NCBI GenBank assembly: GCA_015233675.1
Contig: JADFXH010000009.1
Coordinates: 22,339-86,338, forward strand
DNA from: Candidatus Omnitrophota bacterium
GTDB taxonomy: Bacteria > Omnitrophota > Gorgyraeia > Zapsychrales > Fredricksoniimonadaceae
Length of the DNA: 64,000 nucleotides
Direction of reading: 5' to 3'
Positions 923 to 63,191 of this stretch are shown in pieces (within the stretch, counting starts at the first letter, position 1; each line of letters opens with the position of its first letter). The notes beneath the pieces were generated by a model that was not told the DNA's origin, ran no database searches, and saw only the letters and a list, made by a program, of their open reading frames with translations. The translations under genes and the position numbers were made by a program.

Positions 923-965
923 GTCATTCCAGCGAAAGCGGGAATCTTTGATGATGAGATTCCCG
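923..965. repeat. short hairpin repeat GTCATTCC(A/C)GCGAAAGCGGGAATC plus a third complementary arm
   Basis: GTCATTCCAGCGAAAGCGGGAATC (923-946), with GATTCCCGC again at 957-965. Overlaps the 3' end of the 924..2669 CDS. Confidence 0.8.
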
Positions 966-2669
966 CAATTTTTTAAGCTCACTGATAAATCCGGGATTAA
1001 CAGCATACTCCAATTCTTTTGCTTTATGTACGTCACTCCACGCTTTATCATATTTTTTTAACTGATAATAAATTTGGGCCCGATTATAATAAGCAATTGA
1101 ATCATCCGGATCTATTTTAATAGCTTTGTTGTAATCTAATAAAGCTAAGGCAAAGTCCCCTTTTATCTTGTAGACATATCCGCGGTTATTATAAATTTCT
1201 GCAATATTCGGATTTATATCAATGATTTTGCTATTAATTAAAATGGCTTGAGCAAAATTGCCTTGATAGAAATAAAAATTGCTCAATATATTATAAATTT
1301 GTAAATATTGCGGGTCTATCTCAATGGCTTTATTATAGTCTACTAGAGCCTGCGCAAAGTTACCTGCAGAGGAGTACGCGCTGGCACGATTGCAATACGG
1401 CCTTGCTTTATGAGGAGATTTTTGGACGACATCATTCCATAAAGCAATTTCGTCTTTCCAAATTTTATTCCTTTGATAAGTCAGCACAGCATTACATCCT
1501 ATTATCACCGTCAGAACGATAACCATCGCTTTAATGCTATTCTTCCCCCAAAGATAGTACCCTCCGCTGACTAAGAATATGCTATAACCCACCAATGGTA
1601 AATATAACCGGTGTTCAAGAATGATGTCTCCCATCGCCCAAAAACTCGATTCAGGTATAGTTAGAGTCAAGAAAAACCAAAAAATGGAAAAAGAAAGCAG
1701 TCTATATCTTAAGAATAGTCGCTTAGCCCAATAAAAAATAGCTGTTAAAAATAAAAGACTGATCAATACAGGCAATTGAAAAATATTCTTAAAAACAGGA
1801 TAATCATAATCAAGGTTCTGGTTGATCGGAATGAATACCAGTCTCATATAGGTGACCATGGTCCTGAATTGGGTCAAGAAATAATGCATAGGGGTGATGA
1901 CACCTCCATGCGCCCTTAAATCACCATGCATGCTTTGAAAAACTTGTGACTTGATAAATAAGAATGTGACGGGAACAATAAATATGGTAAGCAAAAAAGG
2001 AGCAAGACATCTCCAGTTAAGCCTGTCTTTAGTGTTTAGAAAACTACACTCATATAGCAGGATTATCAAGGGTAGCGTTACAGTATTCTCCTTTGTGAAC
2101 ATGGCCACAACTGCAGTTATCAGTGCGGCCGGGTAATAAAATCTCCCAAGTTGTGAATTATATCCCTCAGCCTGCAATAGTCTTGATTTAACATAAAGGC
2201 ATAAGGATGCCAAATAAAACATGGCAGCCATTGAAGCGGCCCTCTGCCAAATATACGTCACTGCTTCGGTCTGGAGAGGGTGGCTTACAAATACCAGACC
2301 TGCAAACAGAGCAATGAGATTAGCATGCCGGATAATTTTATCCTCTTTCATGGCAGGAGTAGAAAGAGTCAAAAGGGTCAGCCACCAAACTAAAATGGCC
2401 GTAATTATATGAACCGCCAAGTTAAACAGGTGGTATCCAAAAACATTAAGGCCGTTAAAGTGATAGTTAAAAGCCAGAGAAAGGAAAACAAAAAAACGGC
2501 CATGAAAATAATGCCAGATCTTTTGCAAATCATGAACGTTTCTTATTGCAGAATTATAGACTATAAATATTTTATCATCGAACTGAAACAAGCAATGAAA
2601 AGTGTTGGAATAAACAACAATTCCCAGACAAAAGATAAGCAGAATTGAAAGCAGATAACACGGCCTCAA
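924..2669 (-). CDS. TMTC/PMT-like GT-C membrane protein with C-terminal TPR domain (tandem paralog 1)
   Basis: 581 aa. A polytopic N-terminal ~400 aa carries an FQFDD motif in the first loop (acidic GT-C-type loop). The C-terminus has TPR repeats (AYYNRAQIYYQLKKYDKAW). The last ~14 codons read into a short hairpin repeat. Confidence 0.6.
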   Translation of the reverse strand: MRPCYLLSILLIFCLGIVVYSNTFHCLFQFDDKIFIVYNSAIRNVHDLQKIWHYFHGRFFVFLSLAFNYHFNGLNVFGYHLFNLAVHIITAILVWWLTLLTLSTPAMKEDKIIRHANLIALFAGLVFVSHPLQTEAVTYIWQRAASMAAMFYLASLCLYVKSRLLQAEGYNSQLGRFYYPAALITAVVAMFTKENTVTLPLIILLYECSFLNTKDRLNWRCLAPFLLTIFIVPVTFLFIKSQVFQSMHGDLRAHGGVITPMHYFLTQFRTMVTYMRLVFIPINQNLDYDYPVFKNIFQLPVLISLLFLTAIFYWAKRLFLRYRLLSFSIFWFFLTLTIPESSFWAMGDIILEHRLYLPLVGYSIFLVSGGYYLWGKNSIKAMVIVLTVIIGCNAVLTYQRNKIWKDEIALWNDVVQKSPHKARPYCNRASAYSSAGNFAQALVDYNKAIEIDPQYLQIYNILSNFYFYQGNFAQAILINSKIIDINPNIAEIYNNRGYVYKIKGDFALALLDYNKAIKIDPDDSIAYYNRAQIYYQLKKYDKAWSDVHKAKELEYAVNPGFISELKKLRESHHQRFPLSLE

Positions 2670-2692
2670 AATGCCCCCCCAATGGTTTGCTT

Positions 2693-4528
2693 TTATCTTC
2701 CGGATGATTTTTTAAGCTCACTGATAAATCCGGGATTAACAGCATATCCCAGTTCTTTTGCTTTATGCGCGTCACTCCACGCTTTATCATATTCTTTTAA
2801 CAAATAGTAAGTGCCAGCCCTGTTATAGTAAGCGTCTGGATAATAAGGATTTATTTCAATAGATTTTGTTAAATCAGAAACAGCTTGAGTGAAATTCTTC
2901 ATTTCACCATAAATGCAACCCCGTATGTTATAAGCGATGAAGTCATAAGGGTCTATTTCAATAGCTTTTGCGGCATCAGACAAGGCTTGAGAAAAATTGC
3001 CAAGTTTATGATATAGAATAGACCGGGTATGATACGGCAACACCCCCCTTGAGAATGATATTTTAATTGCTTTGGTATAATCAGCAATGGCCTTAATGAA
3101 TTCACCGCGGCTCTCATAAATTAATCCGCGGTTAATATAAGGCTCTATGTGGTTATCAGGATCTATGGCAATGGCTTTATTAAAATCAACCATCGCACGA
3201 TCAAAATTTCCTTGATTAAAATAGCCAGCACCTCGACTAAAATAAGGCCCTGGCTTATAAGGTGATTTTAAAACGGCATCATTCCACAAAGTAATATTGT
3301 CTTTCCAAATATTATTCCTTTGATAAGTCAGTAACGAGTTCCATCCTATTATCATCGCTAGAACCATAACCATCATTTTAATGCGATTCTTCCCCCAAAG
3401 ATAGTACGCTCCACTGACTAAAAATATGCTAAATCCCGCCAATGGTAAATATAGCCGGTGTTCAAAAATGATACCTCCCATTGCCCAAAAACTTGATTCA
3501 GGTATAGTTAGAGTCAAAAAAAACCAAAAGATGGAAAAGGAAAACAGCCTATATCTTAAGAATAGTCGTTTCGCCCAATAAAAAATAACTGTTAAAAATA
3601 AAAAACTGATCAATACAGGTAATTCCAAAATATTCTTGAAAATCGGATAATCATAATCTAAGTTCTGGTTTAACGGAATGAATAACAATCTTATATAGGT
3701 GACCATGGTCCTGAATTGAGTCAGGAAATAATGCATAGGGGTGATGACACCTCCATGCGCCCTTAAATCACCATGCATGCTTTGAAAAACTTGTGACTTG
3801 ATAAATAAGAATGTGACAGGAACAATAAATATGGTAAGCAAGAAAGGAGCAAGAATTCTCCAATTAAAACTTTTTTTAGTGTTTAAAAAACTGTACTCAT
3901 AAAACAATATCATTAAGGGCAATGTTACAGCATTCTCCTTAGTAAACATGGCTACAACTGCTGTTATCAAAGATCCTGTGTAATAAAATTTCCAATGGCC
4001 TAAACTAAGTTTTTCAACCTGCAGCAGCCTTGATTTGACATAAAGGCATAAGGACGCCAAATAAAACATGGCCGCCATTGAAGCAGCCCTCTGCCAAATA
4101 TACGTCACTGCTTCAGTTTGGACCGGATGGCTTACAAATACCAACCCTGCAAACAAAGCAATGAGACTAGCATGACGGGTAATTTTATCCTCTTTCATGG
4201 CAGGAGTAGAAAGAGTCAAAAGGGTCAGCCACCAGACTAAAATGGCCGTAATTATATGAACCGCCAAGTTAAACAGGTGGTATCCAAAAACATTAAGGCC
4301 GTTAAAGTGATAGTTAAAAGCCAGAGATAGAAAAACAAAAAAGCGGCCGTGAAAATAATGCCAGATGCTTTGCAAATTAAAAATGTTCCTTATTGGGATA
4401 TTATCGACTATGAATATCCTGTCATCGAACTGAAACGAACAGTGAAAGGAATTGGAATAAACAATAGTTCCCAGACAAGAAATGAGCAGGATTGAAAACA
4501 GATAAAACAGCCTCAAGCAAACCTCCAT
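2693..4528 (-). CDS. TMTC/PMT-like GT-C membrane protein with C-terminal TPR domain (tandem paralog 2)
   Basis: 611 aa. The N-terminal membrane domain is nearly colinear with the 924..2669 product, with long identical runs such as GRFFVFLSLAFNYHFNGLNVFGYHLFNLAVHIITAILVWWLTLLTLSTPAMKEDKI. The TPR region is divergent and one repeat longer. Confidence 0.6.
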   Translation of the reverse strand: MEVCLRLFYLFSILLISCLGTIVYSNSFHCSFQFDDRIFIVDNIPIRNIFNLQSIWHYFHGRFFVFLSLAFNYHFNGLNVFGYHLFNLAVHIITAILVWWLTLLTLSTPAMKEDKITRHASLIALFAGLVFVSHPVQTEAVTYIWQRAASMAAMFYLASLCLYVKSRLLQVEKLSLGHWKFYYTGSLITAVVAMFTKENAVTLPLMILFYEYSFLNTKKSFNWRILAPFLLTIFIVPVTFLFIKSQVFQSMHGDLRAHGGVITPMHYFLTQFRTMVTYIRLLFIPLNQNLDYDYPIFKNILELPVLISFLFLTVIFYWAKRLFLRYRLFSFSIFWFFLTLTIPESSFWAMGGIIFEHRLYLPLAGFSIFLVSGAYYLWGKNRIKMMVMVLAMIIGWNSLLTYQRNNIWKDNITLWNDAVLKSPYKPGPYFSRGAGYFNQGNFDRAMVDFNKAIAIDPDNHIEPYINRGLIYESRGEFIKAIADYTKAIKISFSRGVLPYHTRSILYHKLGNFSQALSDAAKAIEIDPYDFIAYNIRGCIYGEMKNFTQAVSDLTKSIEINPYYPDAYYNRAGTYYLLKEYDKAWSDAHKAKELGYAVNPGFISELKKSSGR

Positions 4529-5254: not shown

Positions 5255-5287
5255 CGAAATCCCTCCGTAAATAATTCATTCATTAGA

Positions 5288-5553
5288 GCATGCATTATAA
5301 GGACTAAATTTGTTCTTTGAAGCGACTGTAATTAAGTACATGAGTATGGATGGACAGGTATTATCAATACGGCACATTAAGGAATTTTTCGCCAAATGTC
5401 TGCGAGGATTTACGACAAAAATGTTCCAAATGAAGAGAAACTTTAGAACATTTTTGTTGTAAACCGAAGCAGACGGCGAAAATATTCCGTGCCGAATTGA
5501 TAATACCTGTCCATCCATCACGCTACAAATTGCACGAATGAAAAGAATAAATT
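5288..5553. repeat. composite: type II-like arms flanking type I copy A
   Basis: Left arm GCATGCATTATAAGGACTAAATTTGTTCTTTGAAGCGACTGT (5288-5329) is homologous to the arms of the 62701-62940 palindrome. Right arm GCACGAATGAAAAGAATAAATT (5532-5553) is partly complementary to it. Confidence 0.7.
5346..5518 (-). repeat. type I long-hairpin repeat, copy A (basal variant 1, apical variant 1)
   Basis: 173-nt imperfect palindrome ATGGATGGACAGGTATTA...TAATACCTGTCCATCCAT centred on the loop CAAATGAAGAGAAACTTTA. Lies between dapA and dapB. Confidence 0.9.
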
Positions 5554-8505: not shown

Positions 8506-9874
8506 TTAACTTCTTGCTCCATTGATTTAACTGTTGTGCAACCAAATTTGGGTTCGTCGAACCCAAAGAAGATTTAATTTTAACAGACATTTGCGGATTA
8601 AAAAGTTTTTTTACATCCGCACCAAACAGCAAAGAATATTGTTTCAACTCTCCCAAACTTAACGAAGATAGGGGCCTGCCCTGATCCAAACATTCACGGA
8701 CCATTTTCCCTAAAATGTCATGAGCATCCCGATTAGAGACTCCTTTTTTGACCAAATAATCCATCACATCAACGGTAAAAAAACTTTCATCCAACACCCG
8801 TTGAGCCGCATTGCCTTTTTTGACTTCCATTGAAGCAAAAATTTTACTCAAAACCAAAAGAACATTCTTGGCGGTATCAACACTGTCAAACAACGCCGGT
8901 TTATCTAATTGCAAATCCCGGTTATAGGTCAACGGCAGCCCTTTCAATAAAACATGAATTTGGGCCAGAAGACCTGTAACTTTAGCAGAACTGCCGCGGA
9001 CTAGCTCCAGCACATCCGGGTTTTTCTTGTGCGGCATAATGGAGGAACCTGTACAAAAACTGCTGTCAATATCAACAAGATCGAACTCTTTGGTGGCCCA
9101 CAAAATCAAGTCTTCAGCGACCCGGGAAAGATGTGTTGTGATCATGGCACAATCGCCGATCAACTCAACAATGAAATCCCGGTCAGAAACAACGTCCATG
9201 CTGTTGGCCGCAACCTGGCTAAATCCGAGCAAAGATGCCAAGTAGACACGGTCCGTTTTAAGCGATGTGCCTGATAAAGCACAGGAACCTAACGGCATAA
9301 AATCCGTGCGATTGGCACAATCAAAAAGCCTCGTTTTATCCCTCTCAAGCATCTCGATATAAGCAAGCATATGATGGGACAACAATACAACCTGCGCCGC
9401 CTGCAAATGAGTATATGCCGGGATTATGACATCTTTATTTTTATTGGCAAATTCCAGAATCTCTTTTTGTAAATAGGTAATGGCTGCCACAAGCTTAGCA
9501 ATTTCATCCCGGCAATAAAGCTTCATGTCCAAAACAACCTGATCATTGCGAGAACGGGCTGTATGCAGTTTATCTGCGGGCTTACCGATAAAAAATTTAA
9601 GACGGTTTTGAATATCCGTATGAATGTCCTCAGCCTTTGGGTCGAATTTGAATTTATCCGTTTCAATTTGCAATAGGATCTTCTTTAGCCCTGCAACAAT
9701 TTTGGCAGAGTCACCCTTTGGAATAATCCCCTGCTTTGACAACATCCGGGCATGGGCTATCGATCCAATGACATCATATTTAGCCAAACGATGGTCATAG
9801 CTAATGCTGAAGGTAAATTGATCAGCCAGCCAATCAGACTTCTTATTAAAACGCCCACCCCAGAGTTTTGACAT
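8498..9874 (-). CDS. argH: argininosuccinate lyase
   Basis: 458 aa. MSKLWGGRF N-terminus and the GSSIMPHKKNP fumarate-lyase signature. Confidence 0.93.
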   Translation of the reverse strand: MSKLWGGRFNKKSDWLADQFTFSISYDHRLAKYDVIGSIAHARMLSKQGIIPKGDSAKIVAGLKKILLQIETDKFKFDPKAEDIHTDIQNRLKFFIGKPADKLHTARSRNDQVVLDMKLYCRDEIAKLVAAITYLQKEILEFANKNKDVIIPAYTHLQAAQVVLLSHHMLAYIEMLERDKTRLFDCANRTDFMPLGSCALSGTSLKTDRVYLASLLGFSQVAANSMDVVSDRDFIVELIGDCAMITTHLSRVAEDLILWATKEFDLVDIDSSFCTGSSIMPHKKNPDVLELVRGSSAKVTGLLAQIHVLLKGLPLTYNRDLQLDKPALFDSVDTAKNVLLVLSKIFASMEVKKGNAAQRVLDESFFTVDVMDYLVKKGVSNRDAHDILGKMVRECLDQGRPLSSLSLGELKQYSLLFGADVKKLFNPQMSVKIKSSLGSTNPNLVAQQLNQWSKKLNA

Positions 9875-11057: not shown

Positions 11058-11112
11058 CCCCTTCCTTAAAATTCCATTACCTTTCCATTGATTAGGTCGG
11101 GCCAACGCCCTT
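11058..11112 (-). repeat. ~56-nt repeat forming the argG 5' leader and Shine-Dalgarno region
   Basis: Minus-strand AAGGGCGTTGGCCCGACCTAATCAATGGAAAGGTAATGGAATTTTAAGGAAGGG, followed by GATATT and the ATG. A second copy lies at 12328-12383. Confidence 0.85.
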
Positions 11113-11128
11113 CCTTAAAATTCTGTTC

Positions 11129-11377
11129 TGTCAAAATTCTTGCAGATTATGCATGAGAAGAGATATTATTTGCTCAACGGGATATTTTCGCCGTTGGCGT
11201 CGGTTTACAGCAAAAATGTTCTAAAGTCTCTCTTCATTTGGAACATTTTTCCTGTAAATCCTAGCCAACTTTTGGCGAAAAATCCCTGAATGTTTCGCAA
11301 ACAATATCCCTTCTCATGCATAACATACAATCCTTGCCCAGGCTGATACTGATATTCAGTGTCAGCCGTCCATGTAT
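11129..11377. repeat. TGTCAAAA-ended composite element carrying type I copy B (right end truncated or diverged)
   Basis: The left end TGTCAAAATTCTTGCAG and the internal sequence are colinear with 53304-53691, apart from the 112-nt insert. Homology ends near 11377 and there is no right TTTTGACA. Confidence 0.65.
11147..11323 (+). repeat. type I long-hairpin repeat, copy B (basal variant 3, apical variant 1)
   Basis: 177-nt palindrome TTATGCATGAGAAG...CTTCTCATGCATAA, sharing the middle stem and apical loop with the other copies. Confidence 0.9.
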
Positions 11378-11407
11378 TCATGTGTCGGGCCGACACAAGG
11401 TCAGTCC

Positions 11408-12322
11408 CTACGCTAACAACTTTAAAAGAACTGCCTTTTGCGCGTGCAAACGGTTTTCAGCCTGATCAAAAACTACCGAGTGTTCTCCGTCAATGATATC
11501 CGCTGTCACTTCCAGACCGCGATGTGCGGGCAGGCAATGCATGAAAATATAATCCTTATGGGCCGCTTTCACCAGATCCTTATTGACCTGATAACCCTTA
11601 AATTCTTTGATGCGTTTGGCTTTTTCTTTTTCCTGCCCCATACTGACCCATACGTCAGAATATATAATATCTGCTCCCTTAACGGCTTGCTGGGGATTTC
11701 GCCCTAATTCAATAGTACACCTATTTTTTTTGGCGCTATCTTTTGCATCTTGCACAATTTCATAGTTAGGATCATACCCTTTTGGGCCGGCAAAACGCAC
11801 ATTAATCCCCACTTTAGCACAAGCAATCATCAACGAATGAAAAACATTATTCCCATCACCAACATAAGCCAAGGTCAAGCCCTTGAATGAACCCATCTTC
11901 TCACGGATAGTCTGAATATCTGCCAGAGCTTGGCAGGGATGATACAGGTCGCACAAGGCATTAATGACCGGCACATCTGCGTGCTGGGCCAGTTCAAAAA
12001 TATCTTTACTGTCAAAAACCCTCGCAACAATACAATGCACATAACGCGACAAGGTCTTGGCCACATCATAAGTAGACTCACGCTTGCCCAGATTGATCTC
12101 TTCAGGCCCCAGATAAAGGCAATGCCCGCCTAATTCATAAACGCCCACTTCAAAAGAAACACGTGTGCGGTTAGATGGTTTTTGGAACACCAACGCGACT
12201 GTTTTGCCTTTCAAATCAGCACGCAATTTTCCTTTTTGTTTCTTTAACAAGCCTGCCGAATCAATCAAAGACACTATTTCGGCGCCGGAATAATCAGACA
12301 ATTTTATCAAATCACGTTTCAT
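11408..12322 (-). CDS. argF: ornithine carbamoyltransferase
   Basis: 304 aa. SNRTRVSFE carbamoyl-phosphate motif and HCLPAHRG. Confidence 0.92.
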   Translation of the reverse strand: MKRDLIKLSDYSGAEIVSLIDSAGLLKKQKGKLRADLKGKTVALVFQKPSNRTRVSFEVGVYELGGHCLYLGPEEINLGKRESTYDVAKTLSRYVHCIVARVFDSKDIFELAQHADVPVINALCDLYHPCQALADIQTIREKMGSFKGLTLAYVGDGNNVFHSLMIACAKVGINVRFAGPKGYDPNYEIVQDAKDSAKKNRCTIELGRNPQQAVKGADIIYSDVWVSMGQEKEKAKRIKEFKGYQVNKDLVKAAHKDYIFMHCLPAHRGLEVTADIIDGEHSVVFDQAENRLHAQKAVLLKLLA

Positions 12323-13580
12323 ACTTTCCCTTCCTTAAAATTCCACAAGCCTTGCCATTGATTAGGTCGGGCCAACGCCCTTTCGTCACAGCTCCCTTTT
12401 TCAAAACCGCCTCAATTGCCCCATCCAAAATATGAATAGCTTTATTAATTTGACGCCGGGTCACATTAAGTGCCGGCATAATACGTAATACATTGTCCTG
12501 CGTACAATTGATAATTAATCCCCTGCTAAAACATTCCTTAAAAATTGCGGCACCTTCAATTGTCAACTCCACTCCGATCATAAGCCCCAAGCCGCGCACT
12601 TCTTTAATAACGTCATATTTAGACTTCAATTCGTTTAACTTCATGACCAAATAGGGGCCCTGAACTTTAACCTTTTTCATTATTTTTTCAGCATAAATAG
12701 CTTTAATTACTCCCAAAGCTGCCTTACATACCAAGGGACTGCCGGCAAAGGTCGATCCGTGCATGCCCGGCTTAAAGATGTCAGCCAGCTCTTTTTTTAC
12801 AATCATAGCCCCTATGGGCAAGCCGCCGCCTAAGGCCTTGGCCAGGCACATCACATCCGGTGTTATGCCGTAATGCTTAAAGGCGAAGATCTCACCAGTG
12901 CGGGCCATGCCCGACTGAACTTCATCAATGATCAGCAGAATTTTTTGCTCATCGCAGATTTGGCGCAGAGCCTTCACATATTCCTTAGTAGCAACATTAA
13001 TCCCGCCTTCACCCTGAATAAGCTCAATCATAATGGCCGCTGTTTGATCATTGACCGCTGCTTTTAAAGCGCCGATGTCATTAAAAGGCACATGTTTGAA
13101 TCCGGGCACAAGAGGAGAAAACCCTTTTTGGTGCTTCTCCTGCCCTGTTGCCGTCAAGGCGCCCATGGTTCGGCCATGAAAAGCATTAATGGTCGTGATG
13201 ATCTCAAATTTCTTGCCCTCGCCGTACTTCCTGGCAAATTTAATGGCCGCCTCCACAGATTCCGTGCCGCTGTTACAGAAAAAAATCTTGCCCTCAAAAG
13301 AAATACGGATCAATTCTTTAGCTAATTTGGCCTGGTGAGGATTATAAAAATTATTCGGAATATGGATTAATTTCCCGATCTGTTCACGCACCGCACCCAT
13401 GACCTTAGGATGGCAATGCCCTAAGTTGCTTACACCCCAGCCAGGAAAAAAATCTAAATATTTCTTACCTTGAAAATCCGTCAGCTGTGACCCTTTGCCT
13501 TTAACAAAGATCGCAGGCATGCGGGTATACGTCAGAAGGATATGGTCGTTATATTCTTTAAAAATTTCGTCAGCTTTCAT
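12312..13580 (-). CDS. argD: acetylornithine aminotransferase (class III); the last ~23 codons are repeat-derived
   Basis: 422 aa. NSGTESVE, DEVQSGMARTG and the PLP lysine region. The C-terminal KGRWPDLINGKACGILRKGKYET is encoded by the 56-nt repeat also found upstream of argG. Confidence 0.88.
   Translation of the reverse strand: MKADEIFKEYNDHILLTYTRMPAIFVKGKGSQLTDFQGKKYLDFFPGWGVSNLGHCHPKVMGAVREQIGKLIHIPNNFYNPHQAKLAKELIRISFEGKIFFCNSGTESVEAAIKFARKYGEGKKFEIITTINAFHGRTMGALTATGQEKHQKGFSPLVPGFKHVPFNDIGALKAAVNDQTAAIMIELIQGEGGINVATKEYVKALRQICDEQKILLIIDEVQSGMARTGEIFAFKHYGITPDVMCLAKALGGGLPIGAMIVKKELADIFKPGMHGSTFAGSPLVCKAALGVIKAIYAEKIMKKVKVQGPYLVMKLNELKSKYDVIKEVRGLGLMIGVELTIEGAAIFKECFSRGLIINCTQDNVLRIMPALNVTRRQINKAIHILDGAIEAVLKKGAVTKGRWPDLINGKACGILRKGKYET
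12328..12383 (-). repeat. ~56-nt repeat forming the argF leader/SD and the argD C-terminal codons
   Basis: Minus-strand AAAGGGCGTTGGCCCGACCTAATCAATGGCAAGGCTTGTGGAATTTTAAGGAAGGG, followed by AAAGT and the ATG. Colinear with 11058-11112. Confidence 0.85.
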
Positions 13581-20683: not shown

Positions 20684-20855
20684 TTGAGATGAACAGCTAT
20701 TATATATTCGGCACGGGAATTTTTCGCCGTCTGCTACGGTTTACAGCTTGGCTGCTATCGCGATAAGGCATTCGCGGCAGCCAAGCTGTAAATCCTTGCA
20801 GACTTTTGGCAAAAAATTCCTATCGTGCCTCACACATAATAGCTGTTCATCTCAA
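20684..20855 (+). repeat. type I long-hairpin repeat, copy C (basal variant 2, apical variant 2)
   Basis: TTGAGATGAACAGCTATTA...TAATAGCTGTTCATCTCAA. The apex is CTTGGCTGCTATCGCGATAAGGCATTCGCGGCAGCCAAG. Confidence 0.9.
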
Positions 20856-20916: not shown

Positions 20917-21089
20917 ATGGATGGACAGGTATTATTAATTCGGCACATTCAGGAATTTTTTCCCAAAAGTCTGCGAGGAGTTACAACAAAAATGTTCCAA
21001 ATGAAGAGAATCTTTAGAACATTTTTGTTGTAAACCGAAGCAGACGGAAAAAATATTCCGTGCCGAATTAATAATACCTGTCCATCCAT
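20917..21089 (-). repeat. type I long-hairpin repeat, copy A' (basal variant 1, apical variant 1)
   Basis: Near-identical to copy A over 173 nt. Sits 61 nt from copy C in the asd / phosphatase intergenic gap. Confidence 0.9.
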
Positions 21090-33428: not shown

Positions 33429-33818
33429 TCAATGGATCCATTCAAAATTCTTATTCTCTTTTAATCCCTTATCAAACGTATATGTCTTAAGATTTCTTGA
33501 AGCGCCAATTTCTCCGAACAAAGCATCATTAAAGCTGAAGCCTCTCGCACATTTAGAAATGGCCAATCGTACGGACGTTTCATACTCAAAACAAAACTGC
33601 GGCACCTTTAAAAGCTCTTCAAACGAATTTAAGACACTTTCTTTGGATAAACCATACTTTTTGGTAAGGACAAAGTGCGTTTCAATTAAAACACCATGGC
33701 AAACGAATATTTCTCTTGGGCCATAGCTTTCAATCAAGGCAATGGCCTTCTTAACCCTGGGTTCATCATCAAGGGCAATAATCCTTATCAAAATATTGGT
33801 ATCTAGGGCGATTTTCAT
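33429..33818 (-). CDS. vapC: PIN-domain toxin (VapC family)
   Basis: 129 aa. N-terminal LDTNILI acidic motif and further conserved acidic residues. Overlaps the upstream antitoxin gene by 4 nt. Confidence 0.85.
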   Translation of the reverse strand: MKIALDTNILIRIIALDDEPRVKKAIALIESYGPREIFVCHGVLIETHFVLTKKYGLSKESVLNSFEELLKVPQFCFEYETSVRLAISKCARGFSFNDALFGEIGASRNLKTYTFDKGLKENKNFEWIH

Positions 33819-34072
33819 TTATTTTCGCTTTCTTCCCATGTTTCTTGACGCGCTTTGCGGATTTCTTCATCGGTTAATTTCTTTGTCCCCTGTCCACGAT
33901 GATTATTAACAAAATCTCTGATAGTGAATCTTTCCATCCGCGGTTTCACTTCGACATGCCCGTTCTTTTCTTCAAAAACAAGATTGTCGCCCGGGTTTAA
34001 CTTTAAACGGACCATTAGCTTTAAAGGAACAGTGATTTGTCTTTTGGATGAGATTTTAGCGGCGATAACCAT
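33815..34072 (-). CDS. vapB: AbrB/SpoVT-fold antitoxin (VapB/MazE-like)
   Basis: 85 aa. SKRQITVPLKLMVRLKLNPGD is a swapped-hairpin AbrB motif. AAGGAGG lies upstream. Confidence 0.8.
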   Translation of the reverse strand: MVIAAKISSKRQITVPLKLMVRLKLNPGDNLVFEEKNGHVEVKPRMERFTIRDFVNNHRGQGTKKLTDEEIRKARQETWEESENK

Positions 34073-34166: not shown

Positions 34167-35427
34167 CACACCTGTCCGGTAAAAAATAAGGAAACCACGT
34201 CCATCGTGTTAGAATAAGGTTACGCGAATAACCAAACCACGAGGAGGGTTCCCAATGGCTCATTCTAACACGCTTTTCCACGAACTGCTAAAACTTATCC
34301 CGAGACATCAATTTGATACAATCGTCAAAAATCATGGCGGTAACCGTTACGTTAAGCATTTTAATTGCTGGCAACAGTTCGCCACACTGCTTTATGCCTA
34401 AGCCGCAGACAAAGATTCTTTACGCGAAATTGAGCAAGGCATGCAAATCAATGATCCCCGGCTGTATCACTTGGGCCTGACACGCATTAAACGCTCAACT
34501 TTATCAGATGCTAATCGCAATCGCCCCAGCGAAATTTTCCAAGCATTGTTTTATAAATTAGTTGAACGCTGTCAGACATTGACACCCAAGCACAAATTTA
34601 AATTTAAGAATCCTCTTTATACTTGGGACGCCACGCTCATCAGCCTATGCCTGTCTTTGTTCCCCTGGTCCAAGTTTGGTCAGACCAAGGGAGCTCTTAA
34701 ACTTCACGTTCAGATTAACCATAGCGGGCATATTCCTGACTTTATAGTTGCAACGCCAGCATTCAATCATGAAAGCATGGTTGTTAAAAGGTCGTTTCAA
34801 ATTAAACCGGACAGCATTTATTGCTTTGACCGCGGCTATTGGGACTATTCGTTGTTCCGTCGGATACATAACGCCAAGGCCTTCTTCGTGACACGCACCA
34901 AGGAAACCATGAAATACACGGTTACCGGACAGCATAGCGAAACATCAAAAAAAGGCATACTCTCTGATGAGATTATTCAACTGGTTAACGATCCATATCA
35001 AAAAGAATTACGGCTAGTGCGGTACTATGATGAGGAGTCCGGAGAAATATTTGAATTCTTGACCAATAATCTTCATTTGGCGGCTACAACCATTGGGAAA
35101 ATTTATCAGGCAAGGTGGCAAATCGAAGCTTTTTTCAAGTGGGTTAAACAAAACTTGAAGATCAAAACATTCTTGGGGACGAATCAAAATGCGGTTTTAT
35201 CCCAAATCTGGGTGGCGATGTGCTACTTCTTGCTTTTGGCCTATATAAAAAATTCCAGACCAAGTTCCAAAAATCACTCTTTTATCTGCATAAACTGGTC
35301 CAGGATGCACTGTTTTCACCTTTAACCATCGTTGACTTGCTTACAGCCTCGCAAAGAAAGCTTGAGCGATTTAAGACCAACGAATTCCAGTTTGCATTCC
35401 TCTAGAAAGTTTTACCGGACAGCTGTG
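34167..35427 (+). mobile_element. IS4-family insertion sequence, decayed
   Basis: 18-19 bp terminal inverted repeats: CACACCTGTCCGGTAAAA (34167-34184) and its near-complement GTTTTACCGGACAGCTGTG (35409-35427). They bracket a DDE transposase reading frame. No clear target-site duplication seen. Confidence 0.8.
34255..35405 (+). pseudogene. IS4-family (DUF4372 + DDE) transposase, inactivated
   Basis: Starts at the ATG at 34255 (GAGGAGGG upstream) with MAHSNTLFHELLKLIPRHQFD. There is an in-frame TAA at 34399-34401, and the frame resumes as the 34441..35325 ORF. A frameshift near the A-run around 35250 moves the conserved C-terminus into the 35220..35405 frame. Confidence 0.8.
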
Positions 35428-41952: not shown

Positions 41953-41980
41953 ATATTATTCCCTTGCCTCGCTCCGGTTC

Positions 41981-42029
41981 TGTCAAAATTCTTGCAGGCT
42001 CGTCCATTGCACTCATATAACTTTTGATA
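41981..42029. repeat. TGTCAAAA-ended element, minimal 49-nt form
   Basis: TGTCAAAATTCTTGCAGGCTCGTCCATTGCACTCATATAACTTTTGATA lies between the sufB start and the Rrf2 stop, overlapping the last Rrf2 codons. Confidence 0.7.
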
Positions 42030-42492
42030 CTACCTCGACTCCCTGCATAAAATGCTTAGTCCGGATTTGCCGTTCACCTTGATTACGCGAAGAAATCAAA
42101 TCACGCACATTGATGGTTTTAAACAGTTCTGAAAGCCGTTCATTCAAATTCAGCATGGGCGAAATGACATTGCATTGGGAGGTCATATCGCAATTCGAGT
42201 AATTGCCATGGAAGCAATTAACGATCTTGATAGGCCCCTCAATGATCTGAGTTAAATCAAAAAGCGTGATTTTCGAAAGGTCCTTGAGTATCTGGTAGCC
42301 GCCATGGGCCCCTTGCTCAGCGCGAACGATCTCATTTTGAGCCATGATCTGTAAAACGCGCGAAGTTGGGTCAAAAGGCGTATGGTATATATCACAAATT
42401 TCCTTGGCTGAGCTCAACTGGCCCGGCGCTTTACTGCTCATATGCCGCAAGGAGATCAGGGCATATTCTAATTTACGATTAATTTTAAACAT
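42013..42492 (-). CDS. Rrf2-family transcriptional regulator (IscR/SufR-role candidate)
   Basis: 159 aa. N-terminal wHTH (RKLEYALISLRHMS) and three clustered Cys (NCFHGNYSNCDMTSQC) compatible with an Fe-S ligand set. First gene of the suf cluster. The last ~5 codons lie in a 49-nt TGTCAAAA-type element. Confidence 0.8.
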   Translation of the reverse strand: MFKINRKLEYALISLRHMSSKAPGQLSSAKEICDIYHTPFDPTSRVLQIMAQNEIVRAEQGAHGGYQILKDLSKITLFDLTQIIEGPIKIVNCFHGNYSNCDMTSQCNVISPMLNLNERLSELFKTINVRDLISSRNQGERQIRTKHFMQGVEVVSKVI

Positions 42493-42518
42493 ATCCCCCC
42501 TAACTCCCTCTTTGGTTC

Positions 42519-42714
42519 TGTCAAAATTCCGCTTCTAGATGACGCGGGTCCTGTCCTTAGTCTCAACGTTAAGGTGCTCCTCAGACGGGGGCAACCTTAA
42601 CAGCAGCACCGACGGTGATATTCCCTATACCGCCCACTTGAGCAGGTGCCGTGCGCGCCTTAACATTGAAACTAAGGACACCCGCTAATCCATGTTTTCA
42701 TAAAACTTTTGACA
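42519..42714. repeat. TGTCAAAA-ended element with GC-rich structured cargo (196 nt)
   Basis: Ends are TGTCAAAATTCC... and ...AAAACTTTTGACA. The inner long stem GCGGGTCCTGTCCTTAGTCTCAACGTTAAGG (42544-42574) pairs with CCTTAACATTGAAACTAAGGACACCCGC (42658-42685), enclosing a GC-rich ~80-nt core. Confidence 0.75.
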
Positions 42715-42744
42715 CAACCCCCTCTTTTACTAAAGAGGAAAAAT

Positions 42745-46248: not shown

Positions 46249-47292
46249 CTATTTACCCGATGCCGTTTTTAAAGCTTCGATAAAACCAGGGTTAACCGTG
46301 CCCCCTAATTCCTGAGTCTTGCGCACATCAGCCCATGCCTTATCGTATTGTTTTAACTGATAATAACCAACAGCCCGGTTATAGTAAGCCTTTGTATAAT
46401 TTGGATTTAAATCCAGAGCCTTAGTCAAATCAGCAATAGCTTCGTTAGGTTTAATCTCTCGAAGATAAGAAAGAGCACGGATCATATAGTTTTTAGCATC
46501 TTTTGAGTTTATAGCAATAAGTTGGGTAAAATCAGAAATGGCCTGAATAAAATTTTGCTGATCATAATAGATGCTCCCACGGATATAATAGGCAACGCTA
46601 TCTTTACTGTTGAGCTCAATAGCTTTGTTATAGTCTGCAATGGCGGCAGATAAATCTCTTTTTTTGATATAGACAAGACCTCGCTTCCTGTAAAGAATCC
46701 CCTCTTTAGGAAAAAATTCAATAGCTTTATTATAATCCATCAAAGCAGCATCGAAATTGCCTTGTTTTACATAGGCCTTACCGCGGTTAACCAAGGCTAT
46801 GACATCCTTAGGATAAACTTCAACAGCTTTCGAATAGTCAGAAATAGCATCAGTGATTTTGCCTTGGTTATAGTAAATAATGCCGCGATTGTTGTAGGCA
46901 GCTGCGAATTTTGGGTTTATTTTTATAGCTTCGTTATAATCTGACAAAGCAGCTGTTAAATTTCCTTGTTTAACATAGAATTGGCCGCGATCAGTATAGG
47001 CCTTAAAATCTTTTGGATCTATTTCAATGGCTTGTGTAGAATCAGAGATGGCATCAGTTAAGTTGCCTAATTTGGCTAGAGCAAGAGCACGGTTGGCATA
47101 TCCTGAAGCATTTTTGTGGTCTGCTTCAATCGCCTTGGTAAATTCCGCGACAGCTTCCTTGAAATTGCCCTGTTTCATGTAGGTCAATCCTAAATCATTA
47201 GGCCCCTTGACCGTCTGTGCATATACAGATGAAATAATTAAAAAAAGCATGGCCGCTAAAGTCAGTTTTTTTAATCCAAAACAATATTCCAT
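46249..47292 (-). CDS. secreted/periplasmic TPR-repeat protein
   Basis: 347 aa. N-terminal signal-like segment (LTLAAMLFLIISSVYAQ), then ~9-10 TPR units. The C-terminal cap is shared with the two TMTC-like proteins. Confidence 0.75.
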   Translation of the reverse strand: MEYCFGLKKLTLAAMLFLIISSVYAQTVKGPNDLGLTYMKQGNFKEAVAEFTKAIEADHKNASGYANRALALAKLGNLTDAISDSTQAIEIDPKDFKAYTDRGQFYVKQGNLTAALSDYNEAIKINPKFAAAYNNRGIIYYNQGKITDAISDYSKAVEVYPKDVIALVNRGKAYVKQGNFDAALMDYNKAIEFFPKEGILYRKRGLVYIKKRDLSAAIADYNKAIELNSKDSVAYYIRGSIYYDQQNFIQAISDFTQLIAINSKDAKNYMIRALSYLREIKPNEAIADLTKALDLNPNYTKAYYNRAVGYYQLKQYDKAWADVRKTQELGGTVNPGFIEALKTASGK

Positions 47293-47592: not shown

Positions 47593-48427
47593 CGATCTTC
47601 CTGAAAATATATAAAACTAAACGCGGTGGTAATATTTTTTGCGCTATCATGCGAGACCAGGAGGATAAATCAGAAACGTAACGCAACCGCGGTTTGGAAT
47701 TATTGACAATGTCCTCAATAAGCCGGGCCACATCATCAGGATCACGCTTAAGCTTTTTAGTATTATTTTGAGCAAGATTTTTCAATTTTTGACTAAACAG
47801 GAAATAGGGACTTTGGGCATTGTCAAAATTCCCGGCATAATGCGCGTTTTGGGTAAAAATATTAGTGGGATAACTCCCCGGCTCAACTATACAAACAGAG
47901 ATCCCAAACAAAGCCAGCTCAAAATAAAGGCTTTCGCTAAAAGCTTCCAAGGCCCATTTGCTGACATTATATGCGCCCAAACAAGGGCTAGCTACCTGAC
48001 CGGCAATACTGGAAATATTAATAATTTTCCCTCGTGAGCGCTTACGCATCAAAGGGATGACTTCACGGCATACGTTTTGTACCCCGAAGAAATTAACTTC
48101 CATCTGCGAACGGATTTCTTCTTCGCTCAAATCTTCAAAAAATCCACCGATGCCATAACCCGCATTATTAATAAGCACATCAATAATGCCATGCGTTTTC
48201 TGAATTTCTTCGATGACATTTTTGATGGTGAAAGGCTTGGTAACATCAAGTTCTCGGATAACGGCCTGAGCATTGCGCTTGGCCAATTCATTTTCCAAGG
48301 ACTGTTTGCGAGTTAAATCCCGCATGGTCGCCCAAACTAAATGACCCTTGCCAGCCAGACGTACTGCGGTCAACAAACCAAAACCGCTCGAACAGCCAGT
48401 GATAAGAATGACTTTTTGATTATCCAT
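47576..48427 (-). CDS. short-chain dehydrogenase/reductase
   Basis: 283 aa. ITGCSSGFG and YNVSKWA (YxxxK) motifs. Confidence 0.8.
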   Translation of the reverse strand: MDNQKVILITGCSSGFGLLTAVRLAGKGHLVWATMRDLTRKQSLENELAKRNAQAVIRELDVTKPFTIKNVIEEIQKTHGIIDVLINNAGYGIGGFFEDLSEEEIRSQMEVNFFGVQNVCREVIPLMRKRSRGKIINISSIAGQVASPCLGAYNVSKWALEAFSESLYFELALFGISVCIVEPGSYPTNIFTQNAHYAGNFDNAQSPYFLFSQKLKNLAQNNTKKLKRDPDDVARLIEDIVNNSKPRLRYVSDLSSWSRMIAQKILPPRLVLYIFRKIVDADK

Positions 48428-53244: not shown

Positions 53245-53273
53245 ATTATATAGAAAGCCTTCTCATATGTCAA
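53245..53273 (-). promoter_or_regulatory. sigma70-type promoter of leuC (TTGACA-N17-TATAAT)
   Basis: Minus-strand TTGACA (53273-53268), a 17-nt spacer, then TATAAT (53250-53245). This predicts a ~18-nt leader to the ATG at 53220. Confidence 0.7.
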
Positions 53274-53322
53274 CACAGGACATCCCTGCCGGGCGCATGG
53301 TCGTGTCAGAAATTCTTGCAGG

Positions 53323-53499
53323 TTATGCATAAAAAGAGATATTATTTGCTCAACGGGACATTTTCGCCGTTGGCGTCGGTTTACAGCAAAAATGTTCTAA
53401 AGTTTCTCTTCATTTGGAACATTTTTGCTGTAAATCCTAGCCAACTTTTGACGAAAAATCCCTGAATGTTTCGCAAACAATATCTCTTTTCATGCATAA
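53323..53499 (+). repeat. type I long-hairpin repeat, copy B'
   Basis: Near-identical to copy B (TTATGCATAAAAAG...CTTTTCATGCATAA). Confidence 0.9.
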
Positions 53500-53531
53500 C
53501 ACCCAATCCTTGCTCAGGCTGATACTGATAT

Positions 53532-53643
53532 GTTGTTCTGACGTATAAAAATCTGAAACCTTGCATTCGGCTGGTCTTGACGCGTGACCCCGAATGTGGG
53601 AAACCACCCTACCAGCATGAACAAAGATTTTAGCCAGAACAAC
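53532..53643. repeat. 112-nt nested hairpin insert with 9-nt terminal inverted repeats
   Basis: GTTGTTCTG...CAGAACAAC, flanked by ATAT on both sides. The paralogous site at 11351-11359 (GATATTCAG) is uninterrupted. Confidence 0.8.
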
Positions 53644-53704
53644 ATATCAGTGTCAGCCGTCCATGTATCACGCGCTCATAAACTTTTGACACTGCCGGGC
53701 GCAC

Positions 53705-53733
53705 CATAAAAAACCCGTCTTTGAAGGACGGGG
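53705..53733 (-). terminator. intrinsic terminator after the 53751..54104 gene
   Basis: Minus strand: the CCCGTC and GACGGG arms flank a TTCAAA loop (with extra G-C pairing possible), followed by TTTTTTAT. Confidence 0.7.
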
Positions 53734-53750
53734 CTTCGGGCAACGGCTAA

Positions 53751-62660: not shown

Positions 62661-62700
62661 TCCTCATGAGCACACGGACATAGAAGCATGCAACTCTAGT

Positions 62701-62940
62701 GCATGCATTATAAGGAATGATTTTGTTCTTTTCGCTCCTGAAAGTCATTTTCTTAACGCCAAAAATTCTTATGACGACTCGGTGGTCAAACAACTCGCTC
62801 TTTCTTTCTCTGGAAATAAAGAGCTCAAACATGTTTGACCATTTAAGCCTGAGGGCTTAAATGCCCTCGTCATCATAAGTTTTTTGGCTAAAAATGACAC
62901 AGTCGCTTCAAAGAACAAATTCATTCCTTATAATGCACGC
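62701..62940. repeat. type II ~240-nt Y-shaped palindrome
   Basis: The basal stem GCATGCATTATAAGGAATGA (62701-62720) pairs with TCATTCCTTATAATGCACGC (62921-62940). Two apical hairpins are present: TGGTCAAACA...TGTTTGACCA (62783-62841) and TTTAAGCC-TGAG-GGCTTAAA (62842-62861). Confidence 0.85.
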
Positions 62941-62982
62941 ATCATTAGATGAATTGTCTTTTTAGAAACACATTTAGGATGG

Positions 62983-63158
62983 CTGAACAGCTATTCTTAT
63001 TATGTATTCGGCACATTCTGGAATTTTTTCCCAAATGTCTGCAAGGCTTTACAGCTTGGGTGCCGCATATGCCTTATCGCGATAGCATCCAAGCTGTAAA
63101 CCGTAGCAGACGGGAAAAATATTCCCGTGCCGAATACATAATAAGAATAGCTGTTCAG
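62983..63158 (-). repeat. type I long-hairpin repeat, copy D (basal variant 2, apical variant 2, inverted relative to C)
   Basis: CTGAACAGCTATTCTTATTATGTATTCGGCAC...GTGCCGAATACATAATAAGAATAGCTGTTCAG. The apex is the reverse complement of copy C's apex. Confidence 0.9.
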
Positions 63159-63191
63159 ACTTCACGCGTTCCTGTAAGGAGAATAATTCAT

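Follow-up and report, generated by a model that had tools for sequence, protein, structure and literature searches.

Short gene-less sequences with terminal inverted repeats, probably mobile elements, in the intergenic spacers of an uncultivated Omnitrophota genome

Genomic setting

The 64-kb stretch of Omnitrophota DNA analysed here (the window) has a G+C content of 43%. Most of its genes are encoded on the minus strand and are separated by gaps of 0-60 bp, and nearly every gap longer than 200 bp is filled by repeats. The homologs of its Rrf2, LeuC and ArgG proteins come from Candidatus Omnitrophica/Omnitrophota, and LeuC is 100% identical to the NCBI protein MBF0571668.1. The largest families of direct repeats in the window are those of paralogous repeat-rich genes with a 102-nt period (924-4528 and 46249-47292), which probably encode TPR-like proteins.

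Four intergenic sequences, designated copies A to D, carry related ends. They adjoin the genes sufB, Rrf2, argG and leuC, the last of which encodes an aconitase-family large subunit and has copy D upstream of it. The copies and the features around them are the following.

41976-42034, plus strand: copy A, the minimal form of the element (59 nt), bounded by the left repeat GGTTCTGTCAAAATTC (41976-41991) and the right repeat AACTTTTGATACTACC (42019-42034).
41968-41975, no strand: left flanking repeat of copy A, CTCGCTCC; its partner is TCGACTCC at 42035-42042, a 7/8 match allowing a 1-nt deletion.
42514-42719, plus strand: copy B, 206 nt long, with its left repeat in 42514-42529 and AACTTTTGACACAACC as its right repeat (42704-42719).
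42506-42513, no strand: left flanking repeat of copy B, CCCTCTTT; its partner is CCCTCTTT at 42720-42727, an 8/8 match.
11124-11383, plus strand: copy C, a composite with its right end truncated or replaced, in which the left repeat TGTTCTGTCAAAATTC (11124-11139) is followed by a type-I hairpin (11140-11330).
53299-53696, plus strand: copy D, a composite of 398 nt, bounded by the left repeat GGTCGTGTCAGAAATTC (53299-53315) and the right repeat AACTTTTGACACTGCC (53681-53696).
53322-53500 and 53532-53643: interior of copy D, comprising a type-I hairpin and a further 112-nt palindromic insert that is not found in copy C.
53286-53298, no strand: left flanking repeat of copy D; 12-mer CTGCCGGGCGCA at 53286-53297, or GGGCGCAT at 53291-53298 in an 8-bp register.
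53692-53704, no strand: right flanking repeat of copy D; 12-mer at 53692-53703, or, in an 8-bp register, the tip CTGCC at 53692-53696 followed by the duplication GGGCGCAC at 53697-53704, a 7/8 match.
53245-53273, minus strand: native leuC promoter of the sigma-70 type, TTGACA-17 nt-TATAAT, matching the consensus at 12/12 positions and lying outside copy D.
53714-53732, minus strand: terminator-like hairpin with a T run, following the 129-aa gene upstream; between this hairpin and the leuC promoter lies copy D.

Copies and their shared ends

Copies A, B and D are complete, whereas copy C, which extends to about 11383, has no recognisable right end. The end sequences listed in an earlier note on this DNA were found where that note had placed them, as left ends in all four copies and as right ends in A, B and D. 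The left-end sequence common to the four copies is GGTTCTGTCAAAATTC. This 16-mer has exact occurrences at 41976 and 42514 and a one-mismatch form (TGTTC...) at 11124; allowing up to two mismatches, the 64-kb window contains three matches vs 0.11 expected, and none of 100 shuffles gave three. The left end of copy D (53299-53315) has diverged by one inserted G and two substitutions. The right end common to A, B and D reads AACTTTTGAYA followed by CWRCC, a search pattern that was built from these copies themselves. The three right ends align with their GG tips included, and none of 2000 shuffles scored equally; approximately 20 nt of subterminal sequence (TATGA...ATGGA) is also shared by them.

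The repeats proposed in the earlier note are real, but they are better read as 16-17-nt imperfect inverted repeats that include the 5-nt tips of the GGTTC type. Read inward, the right repeats are GGTTGTGTCAAAAGTT in copy B, GGTAGTATCAAAAGTT in copy A and GGCAGTGTCAAAAGTT in copy D, and they match the left repeat at about 12-14 of 16 positions. In the model of the core element, GGTTCTGTCAAAATTC on the left is paired with GGYWGTRTCAAAAGTT as the inward reading of the right repeat. Both tips are GG in copies A, B and D, and the left tip of copy C is TG. Similarity among the copies begins exactly at these tips and the flanks are unrelated. All copies have the same orientation and all are located in short intergenic spacers.

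The bare 11-mer TGTCAAAATTC is not significant alone, with 6 matches at up to one mismatch vs 3.0 expected in the window. Its other matches were rejected as further copies: the one at 47821 is coding sequence conserved in relatives, the one at 416 was taken as coding, its translation on the minus strand reading as an aminotransferase motif, and the one-mismatch matches at 9863 and 56762 are presumed to be due to chance.

No open reading frame of at least 80 aa is present within copies A, B or D, and a 63-aa frame at 11205-11396, inside the hairpin of copy C, is probably spurious. Searches against Rfam 15 gave no match at the gathering score; at E values up to 1 there was a single spurious match of a microRNA model, on the type-I hairpin. 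The predicted fold of the minimal copy A (-7.5 kcal/mol, z 0.11) is no better than those of shuffled sequences.

Interior sequences and neighbouring repeats

The "variable cargo" noted earlier consists of nested palindromic repeats, and the strong folds belong to this cargo (z -6.8 for copy B and -10 for copy D). The interior of copy B (about 42530-42690) is a long GC-rich hairpin with an RNA fold of -87.5 kcal/mol, and no other copy of it was found in the window or in the loci of relatives. Copies C and D both contain the type-I hairpin of about 180 nt, a palindrome that is found four more times in the window and also in relatives. C and D are 95% identical over 222 nt, counted inward from the left repeat, and have identical junctions in unrelated flanks; the other type-I hairpins of the window reach only about 88% identity with theirs. 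The hairpin thus entered the element once, and a second site later received a copy of the composite. The similarity between C and D stops near 11378-11383. A candidate right end for copy C at 11417-11434 was discarded as native argF coding sequence, conserved in relatives. In copy D, the 112-nt palindromic insert sits at the centre of a small palindrome that is intact in C.

The six type-I hairpins of the window (5346-5518, 20684-20855, 20917-21089, 62978-63163, 11140-11330 and 53322-53500) share a centre of about 117 nt, conserved at 85-88% identity, and differ in their outer arms. Since they also occur in related Omnitrophota contigs, they predate the TGTCAAAA-ended family and are more widely distributed.

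Several other repeats were observed in the window. An element of about 240 nt (62700-62941) is bounded by 32-nt inverted repeats, TGCATGCATTATAAGGAATGATTTTGTTCTTT, and a related single arm (5273-5329) lies beside the hairpin at 5.3 kb. The motif CGTTGGCCCGAC, with the variants TGTCGGCCCGAC and CGTTGCCCGA, occurs on the minus strand at 53736-53745, 12366-12377, 11384-11395 and 11096-11107; three of the four occurrences are at or just past the 3' end of a gene, and two are on the right-end side of copies C and D. A 49-nt unit is found directly upstream of argG and argF (11059-11123 and 12328-12382), where it supplies the ribosome-binding site of the downstream gene, AAGGAAGGG; the argG unit includes a perfect 16-nt direct repeat, CCCTTCCTTAAAATTC, at 11059-11074 and 11108-11123. 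This unit is missing from relatives, whose argD/argF and argF/argG junctions measure 1-19 bp, and it lengthens the argD reading frame to 422 aa, vs 401 aa in relatives. Kinship of the 49-nt unit with copy A was considered and dropped, the resemblance not being significant (p 0.08-0.16).

Absence of the element from relatives

Orthologous spacers were compared, as the earlier note had proposed, in the closest relatives available (90-94% protein identity), and the element is missing at all four sites. The gap between the pterin-4a dehydratase and Rrf2 genes, which holds copy B, is 252 bp here vs 6 bp or an overlap in relatives with about 90% Rrf2 identity. Similarly, the argF/argG gap is 355 bp vs 1-19 bp in relatives with 93-94% ArgG identity, and the gap between the small upstream gene and leuC is 518 bp vs 63-86 bp in six loci of relatives. 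At the last site the exact empty position for copy D was not located, since the divergence of the relatives' spacer prevents an alignment at the insertion point. The relatives' loci, about 160 kb in all, contain no copy of the ends.

Copy A overlaps the last codons of Rrf2, the regulator of the suf operon, and the Rrf2 stop codon (42013-42015) now lies inside the element. With copy A in place the protein has 159 aa and the tail ...QGVEVVSKVI*. Deletion of copy A and one flanking repeat in silico yields a protein of 156 aa, the usual length of its homologs, with the tail ...QGVEARE*. By this reconstruction the insertion of copy A rewrote the C-terminus of Rrf2, with ...VEARE* as its presumed original form.

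The absence of all four copies from relatives, and the presence in C and D of the same cargo with the same junctions, bear out the earlier description of inserted elements that form one family, alike at their ends and different inside. The four sequences are probably copies of a small gene-less mobile element, that is, a MITE or non-autonomous DNA transposon. It tells against this that the family as described comprises only four copies, three of them complete, all within one 64-kb window.

Flanking direct repeats

The flanks of the three complete copies contain direct repeats. In an 8-bp register these match at 8/8 positions in copy B (CCCTCTTT on both sides), at 7/8 in copy D (GGGCGCAT and GGGCGCAC) and at 7/8 with one indel in copy A, where (C)TCG-CTCC is paired with TCGACTCC. 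The repeats run past 8 bp, with matches at 12/12 positions in D, 11/13 in B and 10/13 in A. The 12-mer CTGCCGGGCGCA was described in the earlier note as a possible, unusually long target duplication that might instead be part of a larger repeat. It occurs exactly twice in the window, bracketing copy D, and is not part of a larger repeat. The repeat as such is thus real, but the unusual length is doubtful: the duplication at D is probably 8 bp. When the ends are read with their 5-nt tips, the CTGCC of the right-hand 12-mer belongs to the right repeat as its tip (GGCAG on the opposite strand), and the matching sequence on the left would reflect chance or preference.

On the inward strand the right tips are GGTAG, GGTTG and GGCAG, compared with the conserved left tip GGTTC. 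The 5 nt to the left of the left duplication resemble the right tip at 11/15 positions when A, B and D are pooled. In the 8-bp model this excess repeat length is accounted for only by chance or by a target preference, and the exact CTGCC at D would have arisen by coincidence, with odds of roughly 1 in 100 to 1 in 1000. Partial matches to the tip are, however, made easier by the location of the left flanks just upstream of ribosome-binding sites, where the coding strand is GG-rich, so that chance matches to a tip starting with GG are inflated.

An earlier reading took the ends to be 11-nt TGTCAAAAKTT repeats, with GGTTC as an extra on one side and with 12-13 bp of target duplicated. The long repeats in all three copies, above all the 12/12 match at D that occurs only twice in the window, agree with it, and GGTAG beside the right end of copy A could plausibly be native Rrf2 codons (E-V; compare the tail ...AEVED of the closest homolog). 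In this 12-13-bp model, however, the right tip is target DNA, and three unrelated flanks would then all start with GG like the left tip, for which the chance is about (1/16)^3. Moreover, a GG tip at one end only would make an odd transposase substrate, and the mismatches in the 13-nt register cluster in the first 5 positions. The reading is accordingly judged unlikely. Equally unlikely is what it would suggest about the enzyme, namely a long-stagger transposase of the sort found in part of the IS4 family; an IS4-family element does exist in the window, but its ends are unrelated. The relatives cannot choose between the two registers because both predict the identical empty site.

A still less probable proposal, which we would put well below the preceding one, treats two observations as real mechanistic features: the 12-13-bp length of the repeats, and the fact that three left tips lie 21-23 nt before start codons in one orientation. 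Targets would then be chosen for carrying a sequence like the right tip (CWRCC plus 8 nt) upstream of ribosome-binding sites, or, equivalently, the right tip would be rebuilt from the target; this part, too, appears improbable. If true, it would be a mode of selection undescribed for IS6-like elements. The placement of the tips and the single orientation are not read as targeting here, because purifying selection would leave such a pattern among spacers of near-zero length. The preferred reading remains an 8-bp duplication next to 16-17-nt inverted repeats with GG tips.

Transposition or recombination

The copies might also be repeated intergenic sequences that spread between spacers by recombination or gene conversion, as chimeric palindromic modules whose flanking repeats are by-products. 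The window is rich in nested palindromic repeats, which fill nearly all of its longer gaps, and copy C does look chimeric: on its right side it is similar (p 0.02) to another sequence, a 49-nt unit, and it shares the GGCCCGAC motif. Against such an origin, the similarity of the copies starts precisely at the inverted-repeat tips, the three complete copies have flanking duplications at those tips, and the paired inverted ends surround unrelated interiors, which is a signature of transposition. Spread by recombination thus seems quite improbable, and insertion by transposition is the reading followed below.

Search for a partner transposase

No partner transposase with matching ends, and no further pair of GGTTCTGTCAAAA-type ends, was found in the window. 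Among 27 of its approximately 67 open reading frames scanned against Pfam, including all those of IS6-transposase size (about 220-270 aa), none matched DDE_Tnp_IS240. The only transposase of the window belongs to a decayed IS4-family element (34167-35427) with the 18-nt inverted repeats CACACCTGTCCGGTAAAA. This element was rejected as the partner, its ends being unrelated to those of the copies and its reading frame interrupted. Its DDE_Tnp_1 frame (34441-35325) has an in-frame TAA in the N-terminal part, there is no clear target duplication, and it adjoins a PIN / MazE-like toxin-antitoxin pair (33429-34072).

Wider searches were also negative. The exact 20-mer TTCTGTCAAAATTCTTGCAG gave 8 matches in genome contigs and 6 in metagenome contigs, all of them single, unrelated, mostly coding and attributable to chance. 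In viral contigs GGTTCTGTCAAAAKTT gave 51 matches, approximately the number expected by chance, with no credible inverted partner within 3.5 kb. A blastn search of copy A against plasmids returned one match (E=4), and a literature search on the end sequences and on Omnitrophota MITEs found nothing relevant.

Relation to known elements

The most likely source of the ends is the IS6 family, an assignment to which we give a roughly even chance. The terminal repeat of IS257 is the 17-mer GGTTCTGTTGCAAAGTT (PMC4856351), and that of IS1216 starts identically (PMC2920175). The ends described here begin with the same 8 nt as both, GGTTCTGT, and continue with a CAAA(A)GTT block. IS6-family repeats are 15-20 bp long, start with GG and contain cTGTt and caaa motifs; the ends of these elements hold -35 sequences, and the family generates 8-bp duplications (PMC7986276). 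The present elements likewise combine GG tips, repeats of 16-17 nt, an 8-bp duplication and an outward -35-like hexamer at both ends. The 8-bp duplication, which the IS6 assignment predicts, was found independently. A difference lies in the TG that separates cTGT from caaa in IS6 repeats: it is absent from the ends here, in which CTGTC is directly followed by AAAA. Only two MITEs of the family are known, of 227 and 336 bp (PMC7986276), both much larger than the 59-nt minimal copy, and the present host is an uncultivated Omnitrophota MAG. Furthermore, IS6 elements move via cointegrate formation (PMC7986276); simple insertions are therefore unexpected, since cointegrates need resolution, for which the very short homology within a 59-nt element is awkward.

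Nor is the match to IS6 exclusive, because parts of the signature are also found in the ends of IS1 and of the IS1016 group of IS1595. The ends of IS1 fit GGnnnTG. Elements of the IS1016 group, such as ISApl4, likewise have 8-bp duplications and a 14-bp repeat that begins GG..CTGT (PMC12561309). Their repeat, GGGGCTGTACTAGA (PMC12561309), matches at 8/13 positions in an ungapped comparison, vs 10/13 for the IS6 repeat, and is without the CAAAAGTT block.

Bacterial MITEs such as Correia elements, RUP, ERIC and MITEAba12 are likewise short and gene-less, with inverted repeats and target duplications; they too are intergenic, often lie beside gene starts, and form size variants through internal insertions and deletions. 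None of these four is known to be related to the present element in its sequence or in the length of its duplication, which in Correia elements, for example, is TA. No promoter or RNA-processing function is in evidence for the element described here. REP/BIME sequences are also intergenic palindromic repeats of compact operons. In contrast to these, the core of the element has no stable palindrome of 20-40 nt (z 0.11) and no GTAG/CGTC head, and it does possess terminal inverted repeats and flanking duplications.

Position relative to host genes

Three of the copies adjoin gene starts, as had been pointed out earlier, the left tip lying 23 nt from sufB, 21 nt from Rrf2 and 71 nt from the start of argG; if copy C is counted without the 49-nt unit, all three distances are 21-23 nt. 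A promoter role of the outward-facing TTGACA in these 5' regions found no support. No -10 hexamer is present 16-18 nt after the outward TTGACA, and no hybrid promoter was detected. At leuC the gene has its own promoter, which has been kept on the leuC side of the insertion; six related contigs that lack the element have this promoter with nearly every base unchanged. That the copies are regulatory or structural elements of the host (an operator-like inverted repeat, a donor of outward -35 sequences, or RNA hairpins before sufB, Rrf2 and argG) is very improbable: the uniform distance of three copies from start codons, the single orientation of all four and the outward TTGACA at both ends, IS6 ends being known -35 donors (PMC7986276), speak for such a role, but relatives have the same operons without the copies, the spacing of the half-sites varies from about 27 to about 370 nt, no -10 is correctly spaced, the core folds no better than shuffled sequence and no Rfam family matches at the gathering score. 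Overall, no support was found for use of the elements by the host.

Proposed mechanism

The core of the element is a non-coding sequence of about 59 nt bounded by the 16-17-nt imperfect terminal inverted repeats. Insertion of other palindromic repeats into its interior produced the longer copies, and C and D go back to one such composite that was later copied whole. Presumably, a DDE transposase encoded elsewhere in the genome binds both ends and joins them to target DNA cut with an 8-bp stagger, which would create the 8-bp flanking duplication. This transposase may most probably be of the IS6/IS26 family, with IS1595- or IS1-like enzymes as the alternatives.

Significance

In kind, the element is an ordinary genome parasite, found in this case in an uncultivated phylum. 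With it, a phylum known only through metagenomes gains a small family of mobile elements. With IS6-like ends, it would be approximately the third case of such a MITE, a class that is rare according to the IS6 review (PMC7986276). Three points are relevant to annotation. The genome is otherwise very compact, and the elements account for most of its unusually long spacers. One copy has altered the C-terminus of Rrf2, which regulates the suf operon. The copies also mark recent insertions and could serve as strain markers.
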